Origin: a plasmid
Length of the DNA: 33,413 bases
Reading direction: 5' to 3' (one strand)
Sequence record: NZ_CP019031.1
Positions 13,835-23,574 of this stretch are shown here, piece by piece. Position 1 is the stretch's first letter. Every line of letters starts with the position of its first letter. The position numbers were made by a program, and so were the translations under genes. The notes beneath the pieces were generated by a model that saw only the letters and a program-made list of their open reading frames with translations, did no database searches and was not told the origin of the DNA.

Positions 13835-14419
13835 TCATCTTTTTATATTAAACTTTTTGCGATATCTGATAAAGGTCGTCCGTTTAATCCCGGTATTTCG
13901 AGCCACATCAATGTCACTCATGCCTGCCTGGTAAAGCTTAAAAGCATGTTGCAAGCGGGGATCGTCTTGGGTGTATTGGGGTTTGCGCCCATGATATTTA
14001 CCCTGCTGTTTTGCTAGGGCGATTCCTTGTTGCTGACGTTCGATGATCCGCTTACGTTCACTTTCGGCCTGATACTTATAGAGTTCAATAATCAAGTTGG
14101 TCATCAGTTGACGCAAGTTAGGATCCGCGATCCCTGTCATGGACGGTAAATTTAACACATCTAAGGTGGCCCCCTTATTTTGAATGGTATTCATAATCTT
14201 AGTTAAATCCTGGTTGCTTCTGCCTAAGCGATCTAATTCAGTGACCAGGACAATATCACCCTCACGAATATAAGCCAGCATTTTTTGCAGTTCTGGCCGA
14301 TTAGTGTTTGCCCCACTTAATTTATCCGTAAATAATTTATCGACGTCTTTTAAAGCCGCTAACTGTCGATCTAAATGTTGCTCCTTGGAACTCACTCGCG
14401 CATAACCGATTTTAGCCAT
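13835..14419 (-). CDS. Serine recombinase (resolvase/invertase family), 194 aa.
   Basis: MAKIGYARVSSKEQHLDRQ catalytic-serine N-terminus with a C-terminal HTH. AAGGAG RBS. Start placed at the ATG at 14419. Confidence 0.85.
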   Translation of the reverse strand: MAKIGYARVSSKEQHLDRQLAALKDVDKLFTDKLSGANTNRPELQKMLAYIREGDIVLVTELDRLGRSNQDLTKIMNTIQNKGATLDVLNLPSMTGIADPNLRQLMTNLIIELYKYQAESERKRIIERQQQGIALAKQQGKYHGRKPQYTQDDPRLQHAFKLYQAGMSDIDVARNTGIKRTTFIRYRKKFNIKR

Positions 14420-14540
14420 TTTCAATTCTCCTTTTGGACAGTTCTAATGAACACTTACAATTCCTAGTATAGCACAGAAATAAAAAAGACCATTAGGGTG
14501 TACCCTAGTGGCCGTTTAATATACTTTTCTAAAGGGGGGA

Positions 14541-15068
14541 TTAGTATTGTTGCAGTAGCGTCATTAATAATGGCAGCTTTTTTTGAGTAAAATGACCATC
14601 ATTTCTTAAAATAAGTGTTCCACCCAAATGGTCAAATAAACTTCTTCCTTGCTTTTCATTACAATTGAAAGGATCGTTAAATGAATTGAATATATAAAAC
14701 TCATTTGAGTTCTTCTTGATTGTCTTCCAATCATAGGATTTTTTTAAGGTTGTGTGACGCATGCCATTAGGTTGACAATAGCCAGCAATCAAATAGACGG
14801 CTTTAACTGGTTTTGTTAGTTGTTCAAGTAAAGCTAAGATAATATTTGTTCCGGCAGAATGGCCGATTAAAATTGTGTTTTGATTAATGCCTAAGTTCAT
14901 TTCTCTAATTTTAACGAGTGTATCTGTTAGCGATTCTTGATCAAGCTTTGGTAAATCTGCCACAATTGTTGATATTCCTAAAGCGTTTAAACTATGAGCA
15001 ATGTTTTTATACCAAAACTTATCTGCTGTAGCATGCGGTGCTGACCCATGAAGAATGATTGCATTCAT
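14541..15068 (-). CDS. Alpha/beta-fold serine hydrolase, about 175 aa.
   Basis: GHSAG nucleophile elbow. Start at MNAIILHGS (15068) with GGGAGGGA RBS. Confidence 0.6.
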   Translation of the reverse strand: MNAIILHGSAPHATADKFWYKNIAHSLNALGISTIVADLPKLDQESLTDTLVKIREMNLGINQNTILIGHSAGTNIILALLEQLTKPVKAVYLIAGYCQPNGMRHTTLKKSYDWKTIKKNSNEFYIFNSFNDPFNCNEKQGRSLFDHLGGTLILRNDGHFTQKKLPLLMTLLQQY

Positions 15069-15114
15069 TAAAAAATCCCTCCCATCATTGATAATTACGC
15101 TAATAGTTGTTGAG

Positions 15115-15473
15115 CGCTTGGTCATGCAGTAAATTACCTGTATAATAGATTAAGCAAGAAGTTTTAAGGGCGATGGCTGTCTTTTCCCTTGTGAGGTGAG
15201 GCCCATGGGAACATGGAATAATCTTCAGGAAGGTTTCACAGTCGATGAGCGTCTTCCAGACACTCTCGTTGATGTTGCTGTTTGGCACGTTTTTGATCGC
15301 GCTCCTCAGCTATATCGACAAGCACCACAAATAAAAAAGCCGCCCTGTGTAACTTTGGCAGGTTACAGGACGACTAGTATCTAGTCTAATGTTAATGCCA
15401 CCGCCTTTGAAGCGGCTTGCGCGGGAAGTCCTGTTCTAGCGGGGCTTCCCTTTTTCTGTCTACATTATAGCAT
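15115..15473 (+). repeat. Direct repeat copy 1. It contains a promoter, a 62-aa ORF and an intrinsic terminator.
   Basis: About 95% identical to 21860-22219. -35 TTGGTC (15118), 17-nt spacer, -10 TATAAT (15141). ORF 15196-15384. Terminator GGGAAG...CTTCCC plus T5 at 15423-15456. Confidence 0.8.
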
Positions 15474-15676
15474 GACTATAACTGATTTTCGACTATTTTT
15501 AATCAGCTTCCTAGCAGCTTATGGGGAACATACGTTTGATAACTACGCTAATACTAGTGATATCACTATTGACGGTTGGTGAAGTTAGTGTGAAATTTTC
15601 TATAAGAATATGGTAATATAAGGGCATGTGATAATCTTTAGTATTGCGCATAGAAAACAAAGAAGGAGGTAACAGT

Positions 15677-18600
15677 ATGAGTAATAAATCCAGGCATCGT
15701 CGACTTTTATTTATGATGGGACTAGTCTTATTTTCGTTATTAGGGTCAATATGGATATCATCTAATAGTGGTATGACCGTATATGCTGATAGCAAGACAA
15801 ATATTACTCAGAACGGTACGGGGTCCGGGACTGTTATTAATCAACAGGAAGAACCGCAGATAAGTACCGTTAATAGTAATACCACAGATAATACTAGTTC
15901 TTCGGACGATCAGACGTCTCAGAAGCAAGTTACTAATACAGAAGCACAACCGAGAGCACCAACTAACAATAATCAACCAGTTCAGGAGGACCGTAATTAT
16001 ATAAGTAATAGTCAATACTCAACTTCTAATGGTGGGGCTAATACTAATCAGGGCCCATCAGTTAATAGTATTTCTAAGAGTAATAGTTCCCCATCTGCAT
16101 ATAATAAAGGAACTAGCGTTGATATTACTATTAGCAATCCCCAATTAACCACTAATAGTATTGAAGGACGCTTTGCCACTGAATTTAAATTCGATTTCTC
16201 AGTTCCAGATTCAGCCAAATCTGGGGATACAACAACTATTTCATTACCGGATCAGTTAGATTTCCAACGATCTCAGAAGTTTAATATTTATGCACTTGAT
16301 GGCAAAACTGTTGTAGCTACAGCAGTTATCGATAAGCCCAGTAGATCACTTGTTCTGACCTACACCGATTACGTTGATTCACATGACTCAATAAGTGGCC
16401 ATATTGATATGCAAGTAACGGCCGCTACAAGTGAAATTAATAAAGAAGAGACCATACCGGCGGAAATCAAGATTAATGGGCACACCGTTACGATTGATAG
16501 TTCTGGTATAAAACACAGACCTTCCAAGGGTGATACAGCAACAGACTTTTGGAAGTACGGATATGTTGATTATGACAATAACAAGAATGAAATTGTCTAT
16601 CACGTCAACATTAACGCATCTATGCAAAGTGTCAGTAATGTAGTCATCTCTGATAGTTTGGCTTCAAATGGTTTTTCTTATGTGCCCGGAAGTTTTTCTA
16701 TTTCTAAAGGGAATTGGGAAAGAAATTCTGAGAACTATTGGACATTGAGCAATCCACAAGATGTGACAAGCCAATATAACATTGATATTAATTCAAGCAA
16801 TAGTGCTTATACAGTGAAATTGGGCAATATATCTGAGGGTTATGCAATTGTCTACCGGGTTAAGTCAAACCATCCATTACTTAATGGCGAACTGGTCGAG
16901 AATGATGTTAGCTATAAATCTAATAAGAAGGTAATAAACAGTTCTATAAATAGAGTTCTTTACCAAGAGGCTAATGGCAAAGCTAATGGATATAATTATA
17001 GTTTAACTATAAATAAAGAGGATGAATCTGGAGCCCCACTTGCAAATGCTGTTTTTTCTGTTATTCGCAAGTCAACTAATGGGGTTGTTGGAACCATAAC
17101 TACTGGTCCTGATGGTAAAGGAACAATATATGGTCTTCTAAAAGATGATTATATTATACGTGAAACTTCGGCTCCATCGGGATACACATTGGCTAAAGAT
17201 GTTATTGTTTCAGCTGATAGTTTCGACTCTAAGGGAGCAACAGCAACGATCACAGATAAGAAAGCTGTTACCACCGTTTCAGGTACAAAGACTTGGAAAG
17301 ATAATGATGATCAAGACGGCAAGCGCCCTGATTCAATCAAGGTAAACTTATTAGCTAATGGTAAGGTTGTTCAGAGTAAGACAGTGAAGGCATCAGACAA
17401 CTGGAAGTACAGCTTCACTAACTTACCTGAATTTGAAAATGGTAAGAAGATTACCTACACAGTTATGGAAGACGCAGTTGCGGGGTACACAAGTACTATC
17501 GATGGTTACAACATAACTAACAACCACACTCCTGCCACCGTCAAGGTATCCGGAACCAAGACTTGGAACGATAACAACAATCAAGATGGAATCCGCCCAA
17601 GTTCAATCACAGTGAACTTATTGGCCAATGGTCAACAAGTCGCAAGTAAGACGGTAAGCGCTAGTGATAACTGGCAGTACAGTTTTGACAACCTAGCTGC
17701 TTATGCTAATGGTCAAAAGATTACCTACACAGTTACGGAAGATGCAGTTGCGGGGTACACAAGTACTGTTGATGGTTACAACGTAACCAACAACCACACT
17801 CCTGCCACCGTCAAGGTATCTGGAGCCAAGACTTGGAACGATAACAACAATCAAGATGGAATTCGCCCAAGTTCAATCACAGTGAACTTATTGGCCAATG
17901 GTCAACAAGTCGCAAGTAAGACGGTAAGCGCTAGTGATAACTGGCAGTACAGTTTTGACAACCTAGCTGCTTATGCTAATGGTCAAAAGATTACCTACAC
18001 AGTTACGGAAGACGCAGTTGCGGGGTACACAAGTACTGTTGATGGTTACAACGTAACCAACAACCACACTCCTGCCACTGTTAAGGTATCCGGAACCAAG
18101 ACTTGGAAGGATAACAACAATCAAGATGGAATCCGCCCAAGTTCAATCACCGTGAACTTATTGGCCAATGGTCAACAAGTCGCAAGTAAGACGGTAAGCG
18201 CTAGTGATAACTGGCAATATAGTTTTGACAACCTAGCTGCTTATGCTAATGGTCAAAAGATTACCTACACAGTTACGGAAGATGCAGTTGCGGGGTACAC
18301 AAGTACTGTTGATGGTTACAACGTAACCAACAACCACACTCCTGCCACCGTCAAGGTATCCGGAACCAAGACTTGGAACGATAACAACAATCAAGATGGA
18401 ATTCGCCCAAGTTCAATCACAGTGAACTTATTGGCCAATGGTCAACAAGTCGCAAGCAAGACGGTTAGTGCTAGTGATAACTGGCAATACAGTTTCGACA
18501 ACTTAGCCGCTTACGCTAATGGTCAGAAGATTACCTACACGGTAACGGAAAATGCAGTTGCGGGGTACACAAGTACTGTTGATGGTTACAATATTACTAA

Positions 18601-18847
18601 TACCCATAATCCGACAACACCTAAGAAGCCCCAGGTTCCTAATAACCCGACAACGCCTAAGAAGCCTCAAGTTCCTAATAATGGGAATAAGGTAACACCA
18701 AAGGCTTACACTCAAGGTAAAACCTACGAAAAAACAGGTAAATTACCTCAAACAGGTAATGAATCATCAATGGGTATGATGTTAATTGGACTAGTGACGT
18801 TATTGCTAAGCTTGGGTTTAGTAGTTATAAATAGATTTACTATTTGA
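15677..18847 (+). CDS. Sortase-anchored collagen-binding MSCRAMM-type adhesin, 1057 aa, with five Cna-B-type repeats.
   Basis: GGAGG RBS. Signal peptide, then a Ser/Thr/Asn-rich region, then an A-domain with Cna-like collagen-binding-domain features. Five 90-aa B-type repeats (GTKTWNDNNNQDGIRPSSITVNLLANGQQV...KITYTVTEDAVAGYTST). A PTTPKKPQVPNN x2 motif. LPQTG followed by a hydrophobic segment and a basic tail. Confidence 0.85.
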   Translation: MSNKSRHRRLLFMMGLVLFSLLGSIWISSNSGMTVYADSKTNITQNGTGSGTVINQQEEPQISTVNSNTTDNTSSSDDQTSQKQVTNTEAQPRAPTNNNQPVQEDRNYISNSQYSTSNGGANTNQGPSVNSISKSNSSPSAYNKGTSVDITISNPQLTTNSIEGRFATEFKFDFSVPDSAKSGDTTTISLPDQLDFQRSQKFNIYALDGKTVVATAVIDKPSRSLVLTYTDYVDSHDSISGHIDMQVTAATSEINKEETIPAEIKINGHTVTIDSSGIKHRPSKGDTATDFWKYGYVDYDNNKNEIVYHVNINASMQSVSNVVISDSLASNGFSYVPGSFSISKGNWERNSENYWTLSNPQDVTSQYNIDINSSNSAYTVKLGNISEGYAIVYRVKSNHPLLNGELVENDVSYKSNKKVINSSINRVLYQEANGKANGYNYSLTINKEDESGAPLANAVFSVIRKSTNGVVGTITTGPDGKGTIYGLLKDDYIIRETSAPSGYTLAKDVIVSADSFDSKGATATITDKKAVTTVSGTKTWKDNDDQDGKRPDSIKVNLLANGKVVQSKTVKASDNWKYSFTNLPEFENGKKITYTVMEDAVAGYTSTIDGYNITNNHTPATVKVSGTKTWNDNNNQDGIRPSSITVNLLANGQQVASKTVSASDNWQYSFDNLAAYANGQKITYTVTEDAVAGYTSTVDGYNVTNNHTPATVKVSGAKTWNDNNNQDGIRPSSITVNLLANGQQVASKTVSASDNWQYSFDNLAAYANGQKITYTVTEDAVAGYTSTVDGYNVTNNHTPATVKVSGTKTWKDNNNQDGIRPSSITVNLLANGQQVASKTVSASDNWQYSFDNLAAYANGQKITYTVTEDAVAGYTSTVDGYNVTNNHTPATVKVSGTKTWNDNNNQDGIRPSSITVNLLANGQQVASKTVSASDNWQYSFDNLAAYANGQKITYTVTENAVAGYTSTVDGYNITNTHNPTTPKKPQVPNNPTTPKKPQVPNNGNKVTPKAYTQGKTYEKTGKLPQTGNESSMGMMLIGLVTLLLSLGLVVINRFTI
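17261..18610 (+). repeat. Five 270-bp tandem repeats inside the adhesin gene.
   Basis: Unit boundaries at 17261, 17531, 17801, 18071 and 18341. Copies 2-5 are nearly identical at the nucleotide level. Copy 1 is divergent. Confidence 0.85.
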
Positions 18848-18932
18848 TCATGATTGAATGATCGTAAGCACTCCACAACGAACTGGGTTGAATCTTAACC
18901 ATTGATGGTATTTCAGATCCCTGGGTTCAAAC

Positions 18933-18986
18933 AAAAATAGCGGGCGACCAACGCAATTTTCTGCGTTAGTCGCCCGCTTTAGTTTC
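18933..18986. terminator. Bidirectional intrinsic terminator between the convergent adhesin and immunity genes.
   Basis: AGCGGGCGAC ... GTCGCCCGCT: a 10-bp GC-rich stem with A-run and T-run flanks. Confidence 0.6.
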
Positions 18987-19138
18987 TCTATTAAACACGA
19001 CACATGGCCTGAATTTCTGGAGCCCCCGGTAAATAAGCCTCAATATCTGGCGTGTTACGTTGCGTGTTAACAACCGTTAGTAATGGTTAAAAAACCTAAG
19101 GGGTATTGTACGAGAGGGCTTGCTACTTATTTCATTTC

Positions 19139-19642
19139 TTATGAGTTCATATACCAAAATTCGCTACCGTTTGTTAGTAAATAATTATTCAACCATTCAG
19201 TAAAGCCAATGTGGAAATATTTATTTAATTCATCAGGATATAATAAATAATCTTCTTGGTTTTCATATCGTTCCAAATTAAGTATTAGTTGACCGATATC
19301 TTGTAGTTCTAGAATTGGGAGAAGTTTATCCCACTCCGGGTAAAATCCTGAGCTTCTTAAAAATTCTCGCCAATGTAATACTTCTTGAATCGAATAGATT
19401 TTACATTTTTGGATATACTTTCCATCAGTAAATAACTCTGCACCATTTATTTGACTTATAAAGGCTAAATAATCGTTGGGAAGAGAGTAATTAATTTTAT
19501 CAAACTTTTTTAAATCAGCCTGAGTTGCTTTAGCTTTTAATCGAAAACCAACATTCATTGGTAAAGATCCAGAAACATAAATTTTATAGTCACTAACTTG
19601 AGACATTGTTTTGAGAGAATTTACAATTGAATCTATTTCCAT
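19139..19642 (-). CDS. SUKH (SMI1/KNR4)-family immunity protein, 167 aa.
   Basis: YSLPNDYLAFISQINGAELF matches the SUKH-1 LPxDYxxFLxxxNGG signature. AAGGTG RBS. It starts 12 nt after the upstream toxin-domain gene. Confidence 0.55.
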   Translation of the reverse strand: MEIDSIVNSLKTMSQVSDYKIYVSGSLPMNVGFRLKAKATQADLKKFDKINYSLPNDYLAFISQINGAELFTDGKYIQKCKIYSIQEVLHWREFLRSSGFYPEWDKLLPILELQDIGQLILNLERYENQEDYLLYPDELNKYFHIGFTEWLNNYLLTNGSEFWYMNS

Positions 19643-19654
19643 ATATTTAGCACC

Positions 19655-20020
19655 TTAATAGTTTCTAAACCAACTTGTTATTAAATAATGATTTGCATTG
19701 GGAACAGGGAGTAAATTATTAAAATCATCTGTACCATCATAAATTCTTGGACGAATATGATGAATTTGTCGAACAGACCACCAATCAGCAGATTGAGTAC
19801 CATAAGTAGCATTAAATTGATTAATAAAAGCTTGGCGTCCATTCCAACTAGGAGACTGACCTAGCCGAGTCCAATCTGTTCTAAGCGGAGACTCTGCATC
19901 TTTATGCGAGACTGGATCAACATATTCTGGAAAATTCTGGGCTAATTTATTTTGTAATTCAATAGGTCCTTGAGTTATGGGATAAAAAGCAACATTCCCC
20001 GAAGTAGACTTTAAAGACAT
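19655..20020 (-). CDS. Stand-alone HNH/EndoVII-fold nuclease toxin domain of the xHH ([AGS]HH-like) type, 121 aa.
   Basis: QIHHIRPRIYDG...DDFNNLLPVPNANHYL shows an HH dyad, a central Asn and a distal His in ββα-Me spacing. In-frame stops lie upstream. Weak RBS. It looks like an orphan C-terminal toxin module. Confidence 0.45.
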   Translation of the reverse strand: MSLKSTSGNVAFYPITQGPIELQNKLAQNFPEYVDPVSHKDAESPLRTDWTRLGQSPSWNGRQAFINQFNATYGTQSADWWSVRQIHHIRPRIYDGTDDFNNLLPVPNANHYLITSWFRNY

Positions 20021-20172
20021 CCAGTTTATTTAATTTTACCATTTGTACAATCCCAAACCAGATCGTATTAGCCTTTGCGCTTGCCGTTGGTTTTGTGAAC
20101 AGACTTATTCTTTCGCACCAGCGTTCTTGATTGTTTCCTCGATTAACTAGTCGGCTTTGTGTTTCTAGGGCG

Positions 20173-21522
20173 TTAGCTTTTCACAACCGGGGTCTTAAAA
20201 AGATCATTCAAGGCTTCAGACATTGTTGGATGAGTATAGATCATGTCGCGTAATCTTTCGTAAGGTAATTTGGCCTTCATTGCCAATGCAATTAGATTGA
20301 TGGTTTCATGAGCCTCAGCGGCATACAATGTTGCCCCCAAAATAAGGTGTGTTTTTTGATCAACGATTACCTTATAAAGCCCGCGTTGATCCTCCAAGAC
20401 CCGGGCCTTTGGAATCGCCTTAACTGATAGCTTGAAAGTTTGAAAGTTATAACCTGCACTCTTGGCCTGACGTTCATTTAAGCCAACGTTGGCCAGTGGT
20501 GGATTTAGGAACGAAGCAGTCGGTATCACCATTCGATCAGCCGTTGAGCGATCCCCCTTACCAAACAATTGATCTATGATAATACGAAAATCATCCAATG
20601 AGACATAAGTGAACATAGGACCACCATTAACGTCCCCTAAAGCCCAAATGTTTTGTACTGTGGTTCTTAAATGATCATCGACCTGAATAGCACCGCGATT
20701 GGTTAAAGCAATATCAGTATTTTCTAGTCCTAAACTACTTACATTAGGCCGCCGACCGACTGCAACTAATAACGCATCAAATTCTGCAGTGTTAGTTTGA
20801 TCACCTTGTTGATAATATAATGTAACCTTCTCACCATTATCTTTTACTTGAGTTAGTTGAGTCTCCAGTTTAATCTCGATCCCTGCGTTAGTCAGATCTG
20901 TTACGACCTCGGTCGCAATATCAGGATCTTCGCGCTCTAACAATCTGGTATGTTGGTCGAAAATCGTTACATGTGTACCAAAGGAATTAAACATTCCAGC
21001 AAATTCAAGGCCAATATAACCGCCGCCAATAATTGCTAGTCGTTTCGGTTGTTTCTTCAATTCCATAGCTTCTTTAGACGTAAAAATCCGCTGACCGAAT
21101 TCTAGCCCTGGGATTGATGGCCAATTTGGAACCGCTCCAGTATTAATGAAGATGCGTTCACCTCTCACCTTCTTAGTTGTTCCATCACTCATTACGACTG
21201 CCAAAACATAATTGTCGATAAAACGGGCTGACCCATTCCAAACCGTTGCTAGTGGCTCATCAGCCACCATGTGATAGTTTTTGTCTCGCAACTGTCTGGT
21301 CATCTCACCACGCTTATTAACTGCCGTAGTAAAGTCTAAGCCACGTTGACCATTTAAAATTAAATTTTTAGATGGTAGGCAGCCAACATTGATGCAAGTT
21401 CCTCCGTACATTTGTTTAGACCGTTCGATCAGAAGCACGGTCTCATCATGCTGCGCCAAGTACTTAGCTAATGTCTTACCCGCCTTACCAAATCCAATAA
21501 TAATATTTTTAAATTTATCCAT
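20173..21522 (-). CDS. Class I FAD-dependent pyridine-nucleotide-disulfide oxidoreductase, 449 aa.
   Basis: GFGKAGK FAD-binding motif. Redox-active GGTCINVGCLPSK. A second dinucleotide-binding motif IIGGGYIGLE. C-terminal dimerisation-domain His/Pro region. Confidence 0.8.
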   Translation of the reverse strand: MDKFKNIIIGFGKAGKTLAKYLAQHDETVLLIERSKQMYGGTCINVGCLPSKNLILNGQRGLDFTTAVNKRGEMTRQLRDKNYHMVADEPLATVWNGSARFIDNYVLAVVMSDGTTKKVRGERIFINTGAVPNWPSIPGLEFGQRIFTSKEAMELKKQPKRLAIIGGGYIGLEFAGMFNSFGTHVTIFDQHTRLLEREDPDIATEVVTDLTNAGIEIKLETQLTQVKDNGEKVTLYYQQGDQTNTAEFDALLVAVGRRPNVSSLGLENTDIALTNRGAIQVDDHLRTTVQNIWALGDVNGGPMFTYVSLDDFRIIIDQLFGKGDRSTADRMVIPTASFLNPPLANVGLNERQAKSAGYNFQTFKLSVKAIPKARVLEDQRGLYKVIVDQKTHLILGATLYAAEAHETINLIALAMKAKLPYERLRDMIYTHPTMSEALNDLFKTPVVKS

Positions 21523-21859
21523 TGTTTTACCCGCCTTTTACTAGTCATTTATTATTGCACTTATTATAAGTAAGTAAAGTATCAAAAGCAATTTGTATGC
21601 TCGATCACCTGTTTATCTGACTTGGCTTTATAGTCATCATTTCACCATCTTATTTGTCTTTTACCACAGTTTTCCCTCTAGTAGCTGATTTTATGACCTT
21701 CTTTACTTTTATAATCGTACTGTCTGGTAGGGTTTGCGCCCGCTCTTGGACCGCCCTACTGGACGCTTGTCATTTCCCATTGCAGCAGTATTATTAGCCT
21801 TGCTTGCTGACCTTGCTAGGGTTGTAGCTTTCCTTTGCTGTCAAGAGCAGTTTTATTGC

Positions 21860-22219
21860 TCTTGGTTGATTTTTAATTTCCTTGTATAATGGATTGAGCA
21901 AGAAGTTTTAAGGGCGGTGGCTGTCTTTTCCCTTGTGAGGTGAGGCCCATGGGAACATGGAATAATCTTCAGGAAGGTTTCACAGTCGATGAGCGTCTTC
22001 CAGACACTCTCGTTGATGTTGCTGTTTGGCACGTTTTTAATCGCGCTCCTCAGCTATATCGACAAGCACCACAAATAAAAAAGCCGCCCTGCGTAACTTT
22101 GGTCGGTTACAGGGCGACAATGTAGTTTTGTAATCTAGGCCACCGCCTTTGAAGCGGCTTGCACGGGAAGTCCTGTTTTCGGCGGGGCTTCCTTTTTCTG
22201 TTTATATTATAGCATGACC
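21860..22219 (+). repeat. Direct repeat copy 2, with a promoter, a 61-aa ORF and a terminator.
   Basis: -35 TTGGTT (21862), 17-nt spacer, -10 TATAAT (21885). ORF 21940-22125. Terminator at 22165-22197. Most of the differences from copy 1 cluster in the final 60 bp. Confidence 0.8.
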
Positions 22220-22231
22220 TTTAAAAACTGG

Positions 22232-23356
22232 CTAACGCTTTAAACTTTGATCCAGTTCGGATTTGGGTTGTTTGATCTCCGGATTCTGTTCAGCAAAGGC
22301 TTGCAGCTGTTTTTGCGTTCGATTACTGATTTCTTCGTGTATCTCATGTAACTGGTTTTTAAATTGTGCTTTTTGTTGTGAATTAGTCGTTTGCTGAACT
22401 TGTTGCTGCAAGCCTTGATAGGACTTATTAAGATCATGGGCTGATAGCTTTTTTAGATCATGCTCAGGCTCTTTTTGGGCTTCTTGTAAGCCTAATTGTT
22501 TGGTTAACCCGTCACTAAGCTCAATCACTTTGTTACTAACTTGCTGGATTTCACTTAAAGCACTATGGATCACGGCTTTATCTTTAGCCCAGGTGGCCAC
22601 GTAACCGAGTGAGTAGTTGCTGGTATCAACGCCAATATTTTGCATGGCAACATAGGCGACCGCTTCGGCCTGGGTTTCCTGATAGGCTCGTGGCCGATCT
22701 TTAAAGGCTGATTTTAAGCCGTGTAGCTGGCTATGCGCATATTCGTGATATAACGTCTTCAGTTTCAAGGCATTGTCAGGCTCATCGCTACCGATGACGA
22801 TTTCATTAGTGCTGGGTTGAAAATAGCCTTTAGCGCCACCAAGTTCTGACAATCTCTTTTCACTGACTTTAATATCAGTATTGTTATTCAAATAATTTTT
22901 GAGTTCGTTATATAGGTTAGTAACGTTTTTATGATCCGCTAAGTTTTCTTTGACAAAATCTTTAGCACTTAGGACTGGTTCGCCGCTTGTCTGTGATATG
23001 TCAAATACTGGAATATAGCGATAACCAACTATGGCTTTTTCTTCGGTCGTATCAAGCCTTTTCTGATCCTCTGGAGTTAGTTTTTTAATAATAGGGGCCG
23101 CAATCCTGATCCCTTTTTCTCCTTTATTTACTGATCGTTTAAAATCATTCTGCCATTTCTTAAAGCCTGCAACTTGGCTGGCACTTGGATTTTGAGAATA
23201 GATAAGGTCAATATTACGTTGGCTATACCGGTGAAACTTTGCTACGGTATCAAGATAACTTTTAAATTTTTCACTATCAGTTAGTTTTAAAATTTCTTTT
23301 TCGGCATTTTCGACAAGCTGCCTTTTCCATTTTTCAGTTTCAACTTTACTTGGCAT
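22232..23356 (-). CDS. ArdC-like antirestriction protein with an N-terminal ssDNA-binding domain and a C-terminal HExxH metalloprotease-like domain.
   Basis: YSQRNIDLIYSQNPSASQVAGFKKWQ is an ArdC-N-like block. HEYAH is a zincin motif. GGAGGG RBS. It is the last gene of the transfer operon. Confidence 0.65.
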   Translation of the reverse strand: MPSKVETEKWKRQLVENAEKEILKLTDSEKFKSYLDTVAKFHRYSQRNIDLIYSQNPSASQVAGFKKWQNDFKRSVNKGEKGIRIAAPIIKKLTPEDQKRLDTTEEKAIVGYRYIPVFDISQTSGEPVLSAKDFVKENLADHKNVTNLYNELKNYLNNNTDIKVSEKRLSELGGAKGYFQPSTNEIVIGSDEPDNALKLKTLYHEYAHSQLHGLKSAFKDRPRAYQETQAEAVAYVAMQNIGVDTSNYSLGYVATWAKDKAVIHSALSEIQQVSNKVIELSDGLTKQLGLQEAQKEPEHDLKKLSAHDLNKSYQGLQQQVQQTTNSQQKAQFKNQLHEIHEEISNRTQKQLQAFAEQNPEIKQPKSELDQSLKR

Positions 23357-23358
23357 GA

Positions 23359-23574
23359 TTAACCCTCCTCGGCGTCTACAAACTCTACAGAATTATCAAT
23401 TTGCAGTAACTTGATAGATTGTGTGCCGTAAAGTGCTAAATATTCGGCATTCTTTTTTTGCCACGCAACTTGAATATATTTGCCATTACCCGCAACTTCT
23501 GATAGGTACTTATAACTGCTTTTATCCGTTAAAATAGGTAATTCGCTTGCTAATGCTTCCAGTTCATTTTTCAT
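23359..23574 (-). CDS. Small hypothetical protein, 71 aa.
   Basis: GGAGG RBS. Lies between the topoisomerase and ArdC-like genes. Confidence 0.4.
   Translation of the reverse strand: MKNELEALASELPILTDKSSYKYLSEVAGNGKYIQVAWQKKNAEYLALYGTQSIKLLQIDNSVEFVDAEEG

Follow-up and report, generated by a model that had tools for sequence, protein, structure and literature searches.

The question raised by this locus is what kind of element is carried twice, as a direct repeat of some 360 bp, by a lactobacillus plasmid. The window, that is the whole stretch of DNA that was analysed (33,413 nucleotides (nt) of record NZ_CP019031.1), corresponds save for rotation and strand to plasmid pLU4 of Limosilactobacillus reuteri LU4 (NZ_KM063576.1; 33,411 bp; conjugative, MOBQ). 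A preliminary description of the window had read each repeat as a promoter, an open reading frame (ORF) of 62 codons and a terminator, and had considered an RNA or DNA element, a leader of the neighbouring adhesin gene and a mobile element; neither an ORF of 29 codons in another frame nor a convergent RNA gene on the minus strand had been seen. The evidence presented below indicates that each repeat very probably holds an entire type I toxin-antitoxin module, of the TxpA/RatA family (Pfam Hol_Tox), and that pLU4 has two of them. The outcome is thus mostly a correction, the apparent novel 360-bp repeat or leader being a catalogued plasmid addiction module that had been read in the wrong frame.

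The two repeats are indeed present and in direct orientation, as first described, each being about 345 bp long (copy 1, 15118-15476; copy 2, 21862-22218), while their identity is lower than the 95% initially given, at 91.7% over 349 aligned columns in BLASTN. A repeat search gave 96% identity between 15130-15374 and 21874-22118 and 88% between 15397-15476 and 22139-22218, and the 24-mer GCCACCGCCTTTGAAGCGGCTTGC occurs exactly 2 times in the window, where 0 occurrences are expected by chance. The near-consensus plus-strand promoter, the GC hairpin and the GGGAAG..CTTCC+T5 terminator (15423-15450 and 22165-22193) were recovered in both copies. Differences between the copies are not simply gathered in the last 60 bp, as had been thought, and cluster mainly in a spacer of 22 nt (15375-15396 compared with 22119-22138), in one hairpin that precedes it and in the final terminator. 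Base-by-base alignment of both copies places the left edge of the repeat at the -35 element of the plus-strand promoter and its right edge precisely at CATTATAGCATGAC (15463-15476); read on the minus strand, this sequence is an extended -10 element, TGcTATAAT. With convergent promoters at its two edges, the repeat is a single module complete with both its promoters.

Within this unit, the 29-codon frame and not the 62-codon frame bears the marks of a gene. The 29-residue peptide, MSVFQTLSLMLLFGTFLIALLSYIDKHHK, is hydrophobic and matches Pfam PF16935 (Hol_Tox) with 50.3 bits for a cut-off of 23.3, this being its only Pfam match; two other variants of the family reach 48 and 36.7 bits against the same profile. 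The sequence that we take to be TxpA scores 31.3 bits, its N-terminal 17 residues alone matching the profile. Both 29-residue ORFs are already in RefSeq as 'putative holin-like toxin' (WP_021353390.1, in NZ_KM063576.1). The longer ORF, of 62 residues in copy 1 (15196-15384) and 61 in copy 2 (21940-22125), is preceded in both copies by GAGGTGAGG and has no Pfam or NCBIfam match.

To compare the two frames, homologues were collected from 12 plasmids and, by a DNA-pattern scan of genome contigs, from 120 genome loci, yielding 107 distinct units; chance matches (L049, L114, L135) and six truncated or internally deleted copies were left out. The peptide is 29 residues long in 95 of the 107, with two main variants ending in FGTFLIALLSYIDKHHK (50 units) and FAMFILALLTYIDKRNK (29 units), while the 62-residue frame ends after 57, 49, 62, 58 or other numbers of codons. 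Over 34 distinct ORF sequences, 44% of the codon differences in the 29-residue frame are synonymous and the replacements are conservative (mean BLOSUM62 +0.58), compared with 3% synonymous differences and a mean BLOSUM62 of -0.06 in the 62-residue frame. Diverged homologues carry a 6-nt deletion, in frame, within the toxin gene, and 1- and 2-nt insertions or deletions elsewhere across the region of the longer frame. The sole difference between the pLU4 copies within the 29-residue ORF, G or A at 15295, is a silent change of a Leu codon in that frame and a D-to-N replacement in the other. The ATG of the longer ORF sits moreover within the stem of a conserved GNRA hairpin, CCAUG-GGAA-CAUGG, of the 5' untranslated region (UTR).

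With no family match, no purifying selection and a variable length, the 62-residue ORF is ruled out as a gene, the open frame itself being real. The suggestion that the conserved unit is an RNA or DNA element rather than a protein was consequently right in part: the 62-residue protein is not conserved and RNA is involved, yet the 29-residue frame is conserved as a peptide. What the unit does encode is a small (<60 residues) hydrophobic ORF of membrane type, under purifying selection and belonging to the TxpA/Hol_Tox sequence family. As a side observation, homologue L015 (NZ_CP045568.1, locus 264-383) has lost 1 nt, so that the hairpin AUG shares the frame of the toxin gene, and the RefSeq entry there is a 'holin-like toxin' of 39 residues; annotation of the family thus hinges on the choice of start codon.

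The second component lies on the opposite strand. The covariance-model scan that the preliminary description had called for was run, and its only Rfam match was RF01776, RatA, which exceeded the gathering score (49) in either copy: at 15378-15467 of the minus strand in copy 1, with 57.8 bits over model positions 1-91 of 91, and at 22119-22209 of the minus strand in copy 2, with 52.7 bits over the full model. An antisense RNA gene (RNA II) with its own promoter and terminator is accordingly predicted, convergent with the toxin mRNA (RNA I). The sequence CATTATAGCATG at its promoter is invariant in 18 homologues and, with its extended -10, this promoter looks stronger than that of RNA I. The U6 run of the RNA II terminator is the complement of an A-run (15335-15340) that abuts the toxin stop codon. 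The same hairpins would serve on both strands, the RNA I terminator hairpin doubling as the 5' stem-loop of RNA II and the hairpin 15341-15372 of RNA I being the RNA II terminator on the other strand. In its predicted fold RNA II has three hairpins and leaves the spacer unpaired, and over about 125 nt it is the exact complement of the 3' UTR of RNA I.

No excess complementarity was noted between RNA II and the translation-initiation region of the toxin (-21 kcal/mol, compared with -23 to -24 kcal/mol for shuffled RNA II). A complementary run of 16 nt in copy 1 is absent from copy 2 and was dismissed as chance. As RNA II does not pair with the initiation region, control must act through the 3' overlap, and the convergent 3'-end pairing without pairing at the ribosome-binding site is that of TxpA/RatA systems. 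Since both components match curated public models and the ORFs are publicly annotated, the finding is already known in kind.

By its Hol_Tox toxin, its RatA match and its convergent genes overlapping at their 3' ends, the module resembles txpA/ratA of the Bacillus subtilis skin element and EF3263 of Enterococcus faecalis. The latter is toxic when overproduced in Escherichia coli and has an antisense RNA of ~110 nt over its 3' UTR, compared with ~125-130 nt for the predicted RNA II, and toxins of the TxpA family have been catalogued in Lactobacillales (PMC2887945). For these relatives, EF3263 and TxpA, toxicity on overproduction and its neutralisation by the RNA have been validated (PMC2887945). 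The pLU4 toxin differs from TxpA in length (29 residues compared with 59), and the pLU4 module differs from both systems in being plasmid-borne, in belonging to a family that is often multi-copy and in having an overlap that covers essentially the 3' UTR only. The 5'-3' clamp and the hypervariable spacer predicted here (see below) are not mentioned for txpA/ratA or EF3263 in the literature cited.

The module also has features in common with Lpt/RNA II of Lacticaseibacillus rhamnosus plasmids and with Fst/RNA II (par, pAD1): a membrane peptide of 29 residues and convergent RNA I and RNA II, a layout reported for Lpt, the type I module of L. rhamnosus plasmids (PMC5608710). A stronger promoter for the antitoxin, carriage by lactobacillus plasmids, at times as more than one copy, and a structured 5' UTR hiding the ribosome-binding site are shared as well (PMC5608710; PMC8003834). 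The core of Lpt, however, is AIIAPLLVGVFLLL (PMC11352940) and that of the present peptide LSLMLLFGTFLIALL; an A-P-x-x-V-G motif is not found in its hydrophobic core, Hol_Tox is the sole Pfam match, and no pairing of RNA II with direct repeats spanning the toxin start codon is common to both copies. An Lpt/Fst assignment was ruled out on account of the missing AIIAPLLVGVFLLL core and of the lack of RNA II pairing with the start region, whereas TxpA/RatA fits.

With hok/sok of plasmid R1 the resemblance is one of concept only, namely a stable mRNA inhibited by folding back of its 5' end on its 3' end and an unstable antisense RNA that brings about post-segregational killing. That system is Gram-negative, its peptide and RNAs are unrelated and without homology to those of pLU4, and mok overlaps hok there, while the function of the overlapping upstream frame found here is unsupported. 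Sok binds the 5' leader of hok mRNA, unlike the antisense RNA of pLU4, which is directed to the 3' UTR. A weak similarity links the peptide to two other small single-helix membrane peptides, PepG1 of SprG1/SprF1 (Staphylococcus aureus) and ComI of B. subtilis pBS32; with 25.2 and 28.7 bits (E 8e-7 for ComI) against curated NCBIfam cut-offs of 70 and 55, the peptide falls outside both equivalogs. In the open-access literature, no experiments were found on this subfamily of 'holin-like toxins' as carried by plasmids of Lactobacillaceae.

The secondary structure of the toxin mRNA was derived as a consensus fold from 89 cleaned homologues, and its base pairs were counted on an alignment of 100 sequences (A1). 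The elements of the fold are a helix closing the molecule between its 5' end and its own 3' UTR, a stem masking the Shine-Dalgarno (SD) sequence of the toxin, the GNRA hairpin, the hairpin 15341-15372 and the RNA I terminator. Standard pairs occupy 93.1% of the cells of A1, compared with 35-46% once the partners are slid, and the covariation score is 0.129 compared with 0.035-0.067. Changes on both sides were counted at 41 pairs, compared with 16.2 in shuffles, and none of 500 shuffles reached the observed value. Compensatory changes cluster in the hairpins of the two terminators, for instance UA/CG 52:42, GC/AU 83:10 and CG/UA 58:20. The closing helix is made of standard pairs in 95.7% of cases among the 89 homologues (35-52% when slid), and the helices of the SD domain in 98% and 100%. 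In the latter domain, CCUU (15187-15190) and UGAGG (15192-15196) pair with CUUC.GGAAGG (15223-15233), so that the toxin SD, GGAAGG (15228-15233), is paired with CCUU, while CUUC (15223-15226) is paired with part of the GAGGUGAGG motif. The GNRA hairpin itself has 5 bp, and its GGAA loop becomes GUGA, still a GNRA loop, in homologues L013 and L014. With its SD masked and its 5' end clamped to the 3' UTR by a helix of 22 bp, the toxin mRNA is predicted to be translationally inert.

These predicted structures lead to a possible mode of action. RNA II, presumably abundant and unstable, would pair with the 3' UTR of RNA I and expose the toxin mRNA to double-strand-specific cleavage and decay, by analogy with EF3263 of E. 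faecalis and with txpA/ratA of B. subtilis, where toxin mRNA decay is triggered by the antisense RNA and depends on RNase III. In doing so RNA II would occupy the same 24 nt as the clamp on the 5' end, with a predicted binding energy at this site of -51.7 kcal/mol compared with -31.5 kcal/mol for the clamp of copy 1 and -38.2 kcal/mol for that of copy 2. Because it binds the nucleotides of the clamp, it would release the 5' end of the mRNA, which would then plausibly be open to 5'-dependent nucleases, and any residual toxin mRNA would be poorly translated owing to its masked SD. Once the plasmid is lost, RNA II would decay first and the stable mRNA would come to be translated into a membrane peptide that stops growth, as in other cases of post-segregational killing.

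Several points weigh against this identification or against parts of it. The closing and SD-masking helices are near-invariant or changed on one side only, so that they are conserved without being proven by covariation, and the structure was derived from the same sequences on which the pairs were later counted. The folding z-scores of RNA II, -2.2 and -1.6, are modest, and the gap of 11 nt between the SD and the ATG of the toxin ORF is rather long. Some family members are chromosomal or degenerate, and an active addiction module is not required of every copy. The weak sub-threshold matches to ComI and PepG1 leave room for other roles of the peptide. Finally, toxicity, antisense control, plasmid stabilisation and the ends of the transcripts are all predictions. 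The coordinates of the features of both modules are collected in the table.

Table. Predicted features of the two modules of pLU4 (positions in the window).
Feature	Copy	Position	Strand	Basis
RNA I promoter: -35 TTGGTC 15118-15123, 17-nt spacer, -10 TATAAT 15141-15146	1	15118..15146	+	promoter scan; -10 conserved in homologues
RNA I promoter: -35 TTGGTT 21862-21867, 17-nt spacer, -10 TATAAT 21885-21890	2	21862..21890	+	sequence, copy alignment
RNA I start, predicted	1	near 15153	+	promoter prediction
RNA I, predicted, ~305 nt: 92-nt structured 5' UTR, ORF, ~120-nt 3' UTR	1	15153..15457	+	folds; ends inferred
RNA I, predicted	2	21897..22199	+	folds
Closing helix (clamp), 5' strand; partner 15397-15420 in own 3' UTR	1	15154..15177	+	22 bp, -31.5 kcal/mol
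Closing helix (clamp)	2	21898-21921 with 22139-22162	+	-38.2 kcal/mol
SD-sequestering 5'-UTR domain, enclosing GNRA hairpin 15203-15216	1	15187..15233	+	consensus fold
Toxin ORF, 29 residues	1	15245..15334 including stop	+	Pfam PF16935, frame test, WP_021353390.1
Toxin ORF, 29 residues, peptide identical to copy 1	2	21989..22078	+	sequence, annotation, copy alignment
RNA I intrinsic terminator (GGGAAG...CTTCCC plus T5)	1	~15423..15456	+	terminator scan; 6 pairs changed on both sides
RNA I terminator	2	22165-22193	+	terminator scan
RNA II promoter, extended -10 TGcTATAAT (15472..15464); -35 beyond repeat	1	15464..15492	-	scan: 10/12 matches plus TG
RNA II promoter, extended -10 TGcTATAAT	2	22206..22234	-	promoter scan, 10/12 plus TG
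RNA II, predicted, ~125-130 nt, three hairpins	1	~15327..15457	-	Rfam RF01776, fold; ends inferred
RNA II, predicted	2	22071..22199	-	Rfam RatA, fold
RNA II intrinsic terminator: hairpin 15372..15341 then U6	1	15335..15374	-	sequence; compensatory changes
AU-rich spacer in RNA I/RNA II overlap, predicted single-stranded	1	15375..15396		45% mean pairwise identity
Spacer, within RNA II	2	22119-22138

The spacer that separates the RNA II terminator hairpin from the clamp site is hypervariable, with 45% mean pairwise identity and 22 variants among the 89 homologues, compared with 94% identity at the clamp site and 96-97% both in the 5' UTR and in the part of the toxin gene that codes for the N-terminal half. 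The same spacer variants are found with both toxin variants, which shows that the family is recombinationally mosaic, and pLU4 and its syntenic relative pLF3872 have different spacers at equivalent positions. A tentative proposal, which we hold to be doubtful, is that the spacer is a fast-evolving 'address code' for the first recognition between antisense RNA and toxin mRNA, which would insulate co-resident copies from each other and let each retain its own replicon or segment; alternatively, it could be an unconstrained linker. The residual interest of the module lies in the predicted competition for the clamp and in this hypervariable spacer, which, together with the predicted masking of the ribosome-binding site, supply hypotheses on type I systems in lactic acid bacteria.

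Apart from the identification as a toxin-antitoxin module, other readings of the repeat were weighed. As first described, the copies bracket an adhesin gene (15677-18847, +), SMI1/KNR4 and HNH genes resembling a toxin/immunity pair (19139-20020, -) and a gene for a FAD-dependent oxidoreductase (20173-21522, -), and gene coordinates bear this out. The copies might then be chiefly a substrate of recombination, by which 6.4 kb of cargo would be deleted, inverted or swapped as a portable cassette. Their length, identity and direct orientation are suited to such a role, the cargo differs among related plasmids (the adhesin only in pLF3872, an NMN (nicotinamide mononucleotide)-transporter gene or insertion sequences in others), and the mosaic of spacer and toxin variants implies recombination within the family. 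The predicted deletion joint was searched for with a chimera of the left (hydrolase) flank, a single unit and the right (ArdC) flank, counting as a hit any record covered to at least 80%, and was found in 0 of 786 matching plasmid records. Furthermore, each copy travels with its own flank, while flanks vary between plasmids, and most plasmids with the unit have a single one; a deletion would also leave a hybrid toxin-antitoxin copy, so that the pair would not protect the cargo. Excision between the copies, as proposed initially, is physically possible but left no joint in these records, and a cassette function is unlikely to be what the repeats are for; the duplication may, as a side effect, permit such recombination, which does not define the unit.

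The layout of copy 2, a unit followed by a convergent ArdC-like gene, is widespread and a common backbone arrangement, while that of copy 1 (recombinase, hydrolase, unit) recurs in four other plasmids, CP116750, CP124738, CP141797 and CP102715. The cargo near the units is mosaic: in pLF3872 the adhesin alone stands between two units, pHN067-01 has the order oxidoreductase, unit, MobQ, and pMWLp-12A adds an NMN-transporter gene. The published account of pLF3872 mentions two toxin-antitoxin gene pairs and leaves the repeat units unmentioned (PMC5286655). The bracketing of cargo is a mere matter of where the modules are sited on pLU4, copy 1 being in an accessory region, and is not the function of the unit.

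A second reading concerns the peptide, which might be a small membrane regulator or effector, either inhibiting competence in the manner of ComI or acting as a holin-like antibacterial, with the antisense RNA tuning its level. The sub-cut-off NCBIfam matches to ComI and PepG1 given above are compatible with this, as are the name of the Pfam family itself, 'holin-like toxin', the existence of chromosomal copies of the module and the remark that some type I 'toxins' are perhaps non-lethal in their native setting (Fozo et al., PMC2887945). Both scores are nevertheless far under the curated cut-offs, the architecture is that of validated type I systems and the great majority of the modules are on mobilizable or conjugative plasmids, often with more than one per plasmid, which fits a role in maintenance. 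Such a regulatory role is consequently improbable as compared with that of a toxin.

Still less probable is a third reading, whereby the upstream AUG (15205) and GAGGUGAGG would form a 'mok-like' leader ORF whose translation opens the SD-sequestering helix and so enables translation of the toxin. GAGGTGAGG followed by ATG is kept in nearly all homologues, in most of them no stop codon interrupts the upstream frame for at least 44 codons, and a ribosome starting at 15205 would cross 15223-15233, the strand that masks the toxin SD. RNA structure, however, accounts for the conservation, since the GNRA hairpin has the AUG in its stem and UGAGG is paired with CUUC; the upstream frame is open because the toxin gene that overlaps it is conserved in nucleotide sequence; and this frame is reduced to ATG-TGA in L013 and L014 and runs in frame with the toxin in L015. 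A leader ORF is thus very unlikely.

There remains the reading with which the locus was first presented, that is, a cassette of promoter, 62-residue ORF and terminator or a miniature mobile element, copy 1 of which would act as an adhesin leader through regulated read-through. Both copies do have the 62-residue ORF with GAGGTGAGG upstream, copy 1 is on the strand of the adhesin gene and 200 nt upstream of it, a simple scan revealed, from the unit to the adhesin ATG, no strong promoter on the plus strand, and the order unit-adhesin recurs in a few plasmids. Among 97 sampled units with enough downstream sequence, though, a convergent ArdC-like gene follows in 61, an adhesin gene in 6 and something else in 30. 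In pHL70_1 an adhesin homologue with ~155 nt of its own upstream DNA stands after an alcohol-dehydrogenase gene, with no unit directly upstream, and in pLU4 the toxin gene is separated from the adhesin gene by a 12-bp terminator and the convergent promoter. Neither a conserved linkage to the adhesin nor a match to a known cis-regulatory RNA was found, RatA being the only Rfam family detected, and the leader hypothesis was not sustained.

As for mobility, no inverted repeats of at least 30 nt were found in 14000-23500, no transposase is present among the 38 annotated features of the plasmid, and no target-site duplications were seen at the unit in a check made by eye only. The flanks differ and the edges of the unit coincide with promoter elements, so that nothing indicates an insertion sequence, a miniature inverted-repeat element or the end of a known transposon, and the proposal of a mobile or miniature element fails likewise. 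Given these results and a 62-residue frame with the properties described above, the cassette or leader reading is hardly tenable: the unit is a backbone maintenance module and not a mobile element, the end of an insertion sequence or an adhesin leader.

The distribution of the toxin-antitoxin module was then considered. It occurs on 546-647 plasmid records, nearly all from Lactobacillaceae and mostly mobilizable or conjugative, often in several copies; a single unit is carried by most of these plasmids and up to seven matching places by others. Such a distribution on mobilizable and conjugative plasmids fits the logic of post-segregational killing, and the unit appears to be a widespread, compact natural stabilisation cassette across Lactobacillaceae. 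In addition to the two type I units, pLU4 carries two RelB/DinJ antitoxin genes and one gene of the zeta-toxin family (NZ_KM063576.1 1382-2572, 31103-31279), which together give at least three or four maintenance modules. The presence of at least two type I modules plus type II genes is relevant to how stably this probiotic plasmid, with its adhesin gene, is kept.

Partial and displaced copies were also encountered. The last ~80 nt of the unit (~15395-15476), comprising the clamp site, the 5' hairpin of RNA II and the RNA II promoter, occur alone on many plasmids (hits H144-H155) with no toxin annotated under the match; such a lone stretch could represent an orphan antitoxin gene, or this antisense 'head' could have been joined to other toxins. 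Decayed copies include L042 and L133, with deletions within the toxin ORF, L030, L048, L098 and L124, in which the toxin gene is kept and the antisense-RNA half lost, and L013 and L014, which are without the toxin promoter and the 5' strand of the clamp. Near-identical units were found outside Lactobacillaceae in Bifidobacterium mongoliense (L032) and in metagenome-assembled genomes of Phoenicibacter (L037) and Lactococcus (L027), and in chromosome-sized contigs in L024 (an Oenococcus chromosome), L061, L062 and L077. Horizontal transfer, integrated plasmids, contamination or mis-binning could account for these non-Lactobacillaceae and chromosomal units.

Some features of the neighbouring genes were noted in passing. 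Copy 1 travels as a block with the genes for a serine recombinase (13836-14420, -) and an alpha/beta hydrolase (14541-15068, -, in RefSeq); an ATG at 15125 would allow a longer ORF for the latter. The gene with an HNH-endonuclease motif beside the SMI1/KNR4 gene (19139-20020, -) recalls a polymorphic toxin/immunity pair; related plasmids retain SMI1 in varying surroundings, some with an added NMN-transporter gene. The collagen-binding adhesin gene contains, at 17276-18677, five tandem repeats of 270 nt, which are 67-79% identical to the reference copy and may be Cna B repeat units, and a pair of 36-nt repeats. Its annotation on related plasmids is that of a Cna B-type domain protein, and several of its versions there are truncated or interrupted by insertion sequences.

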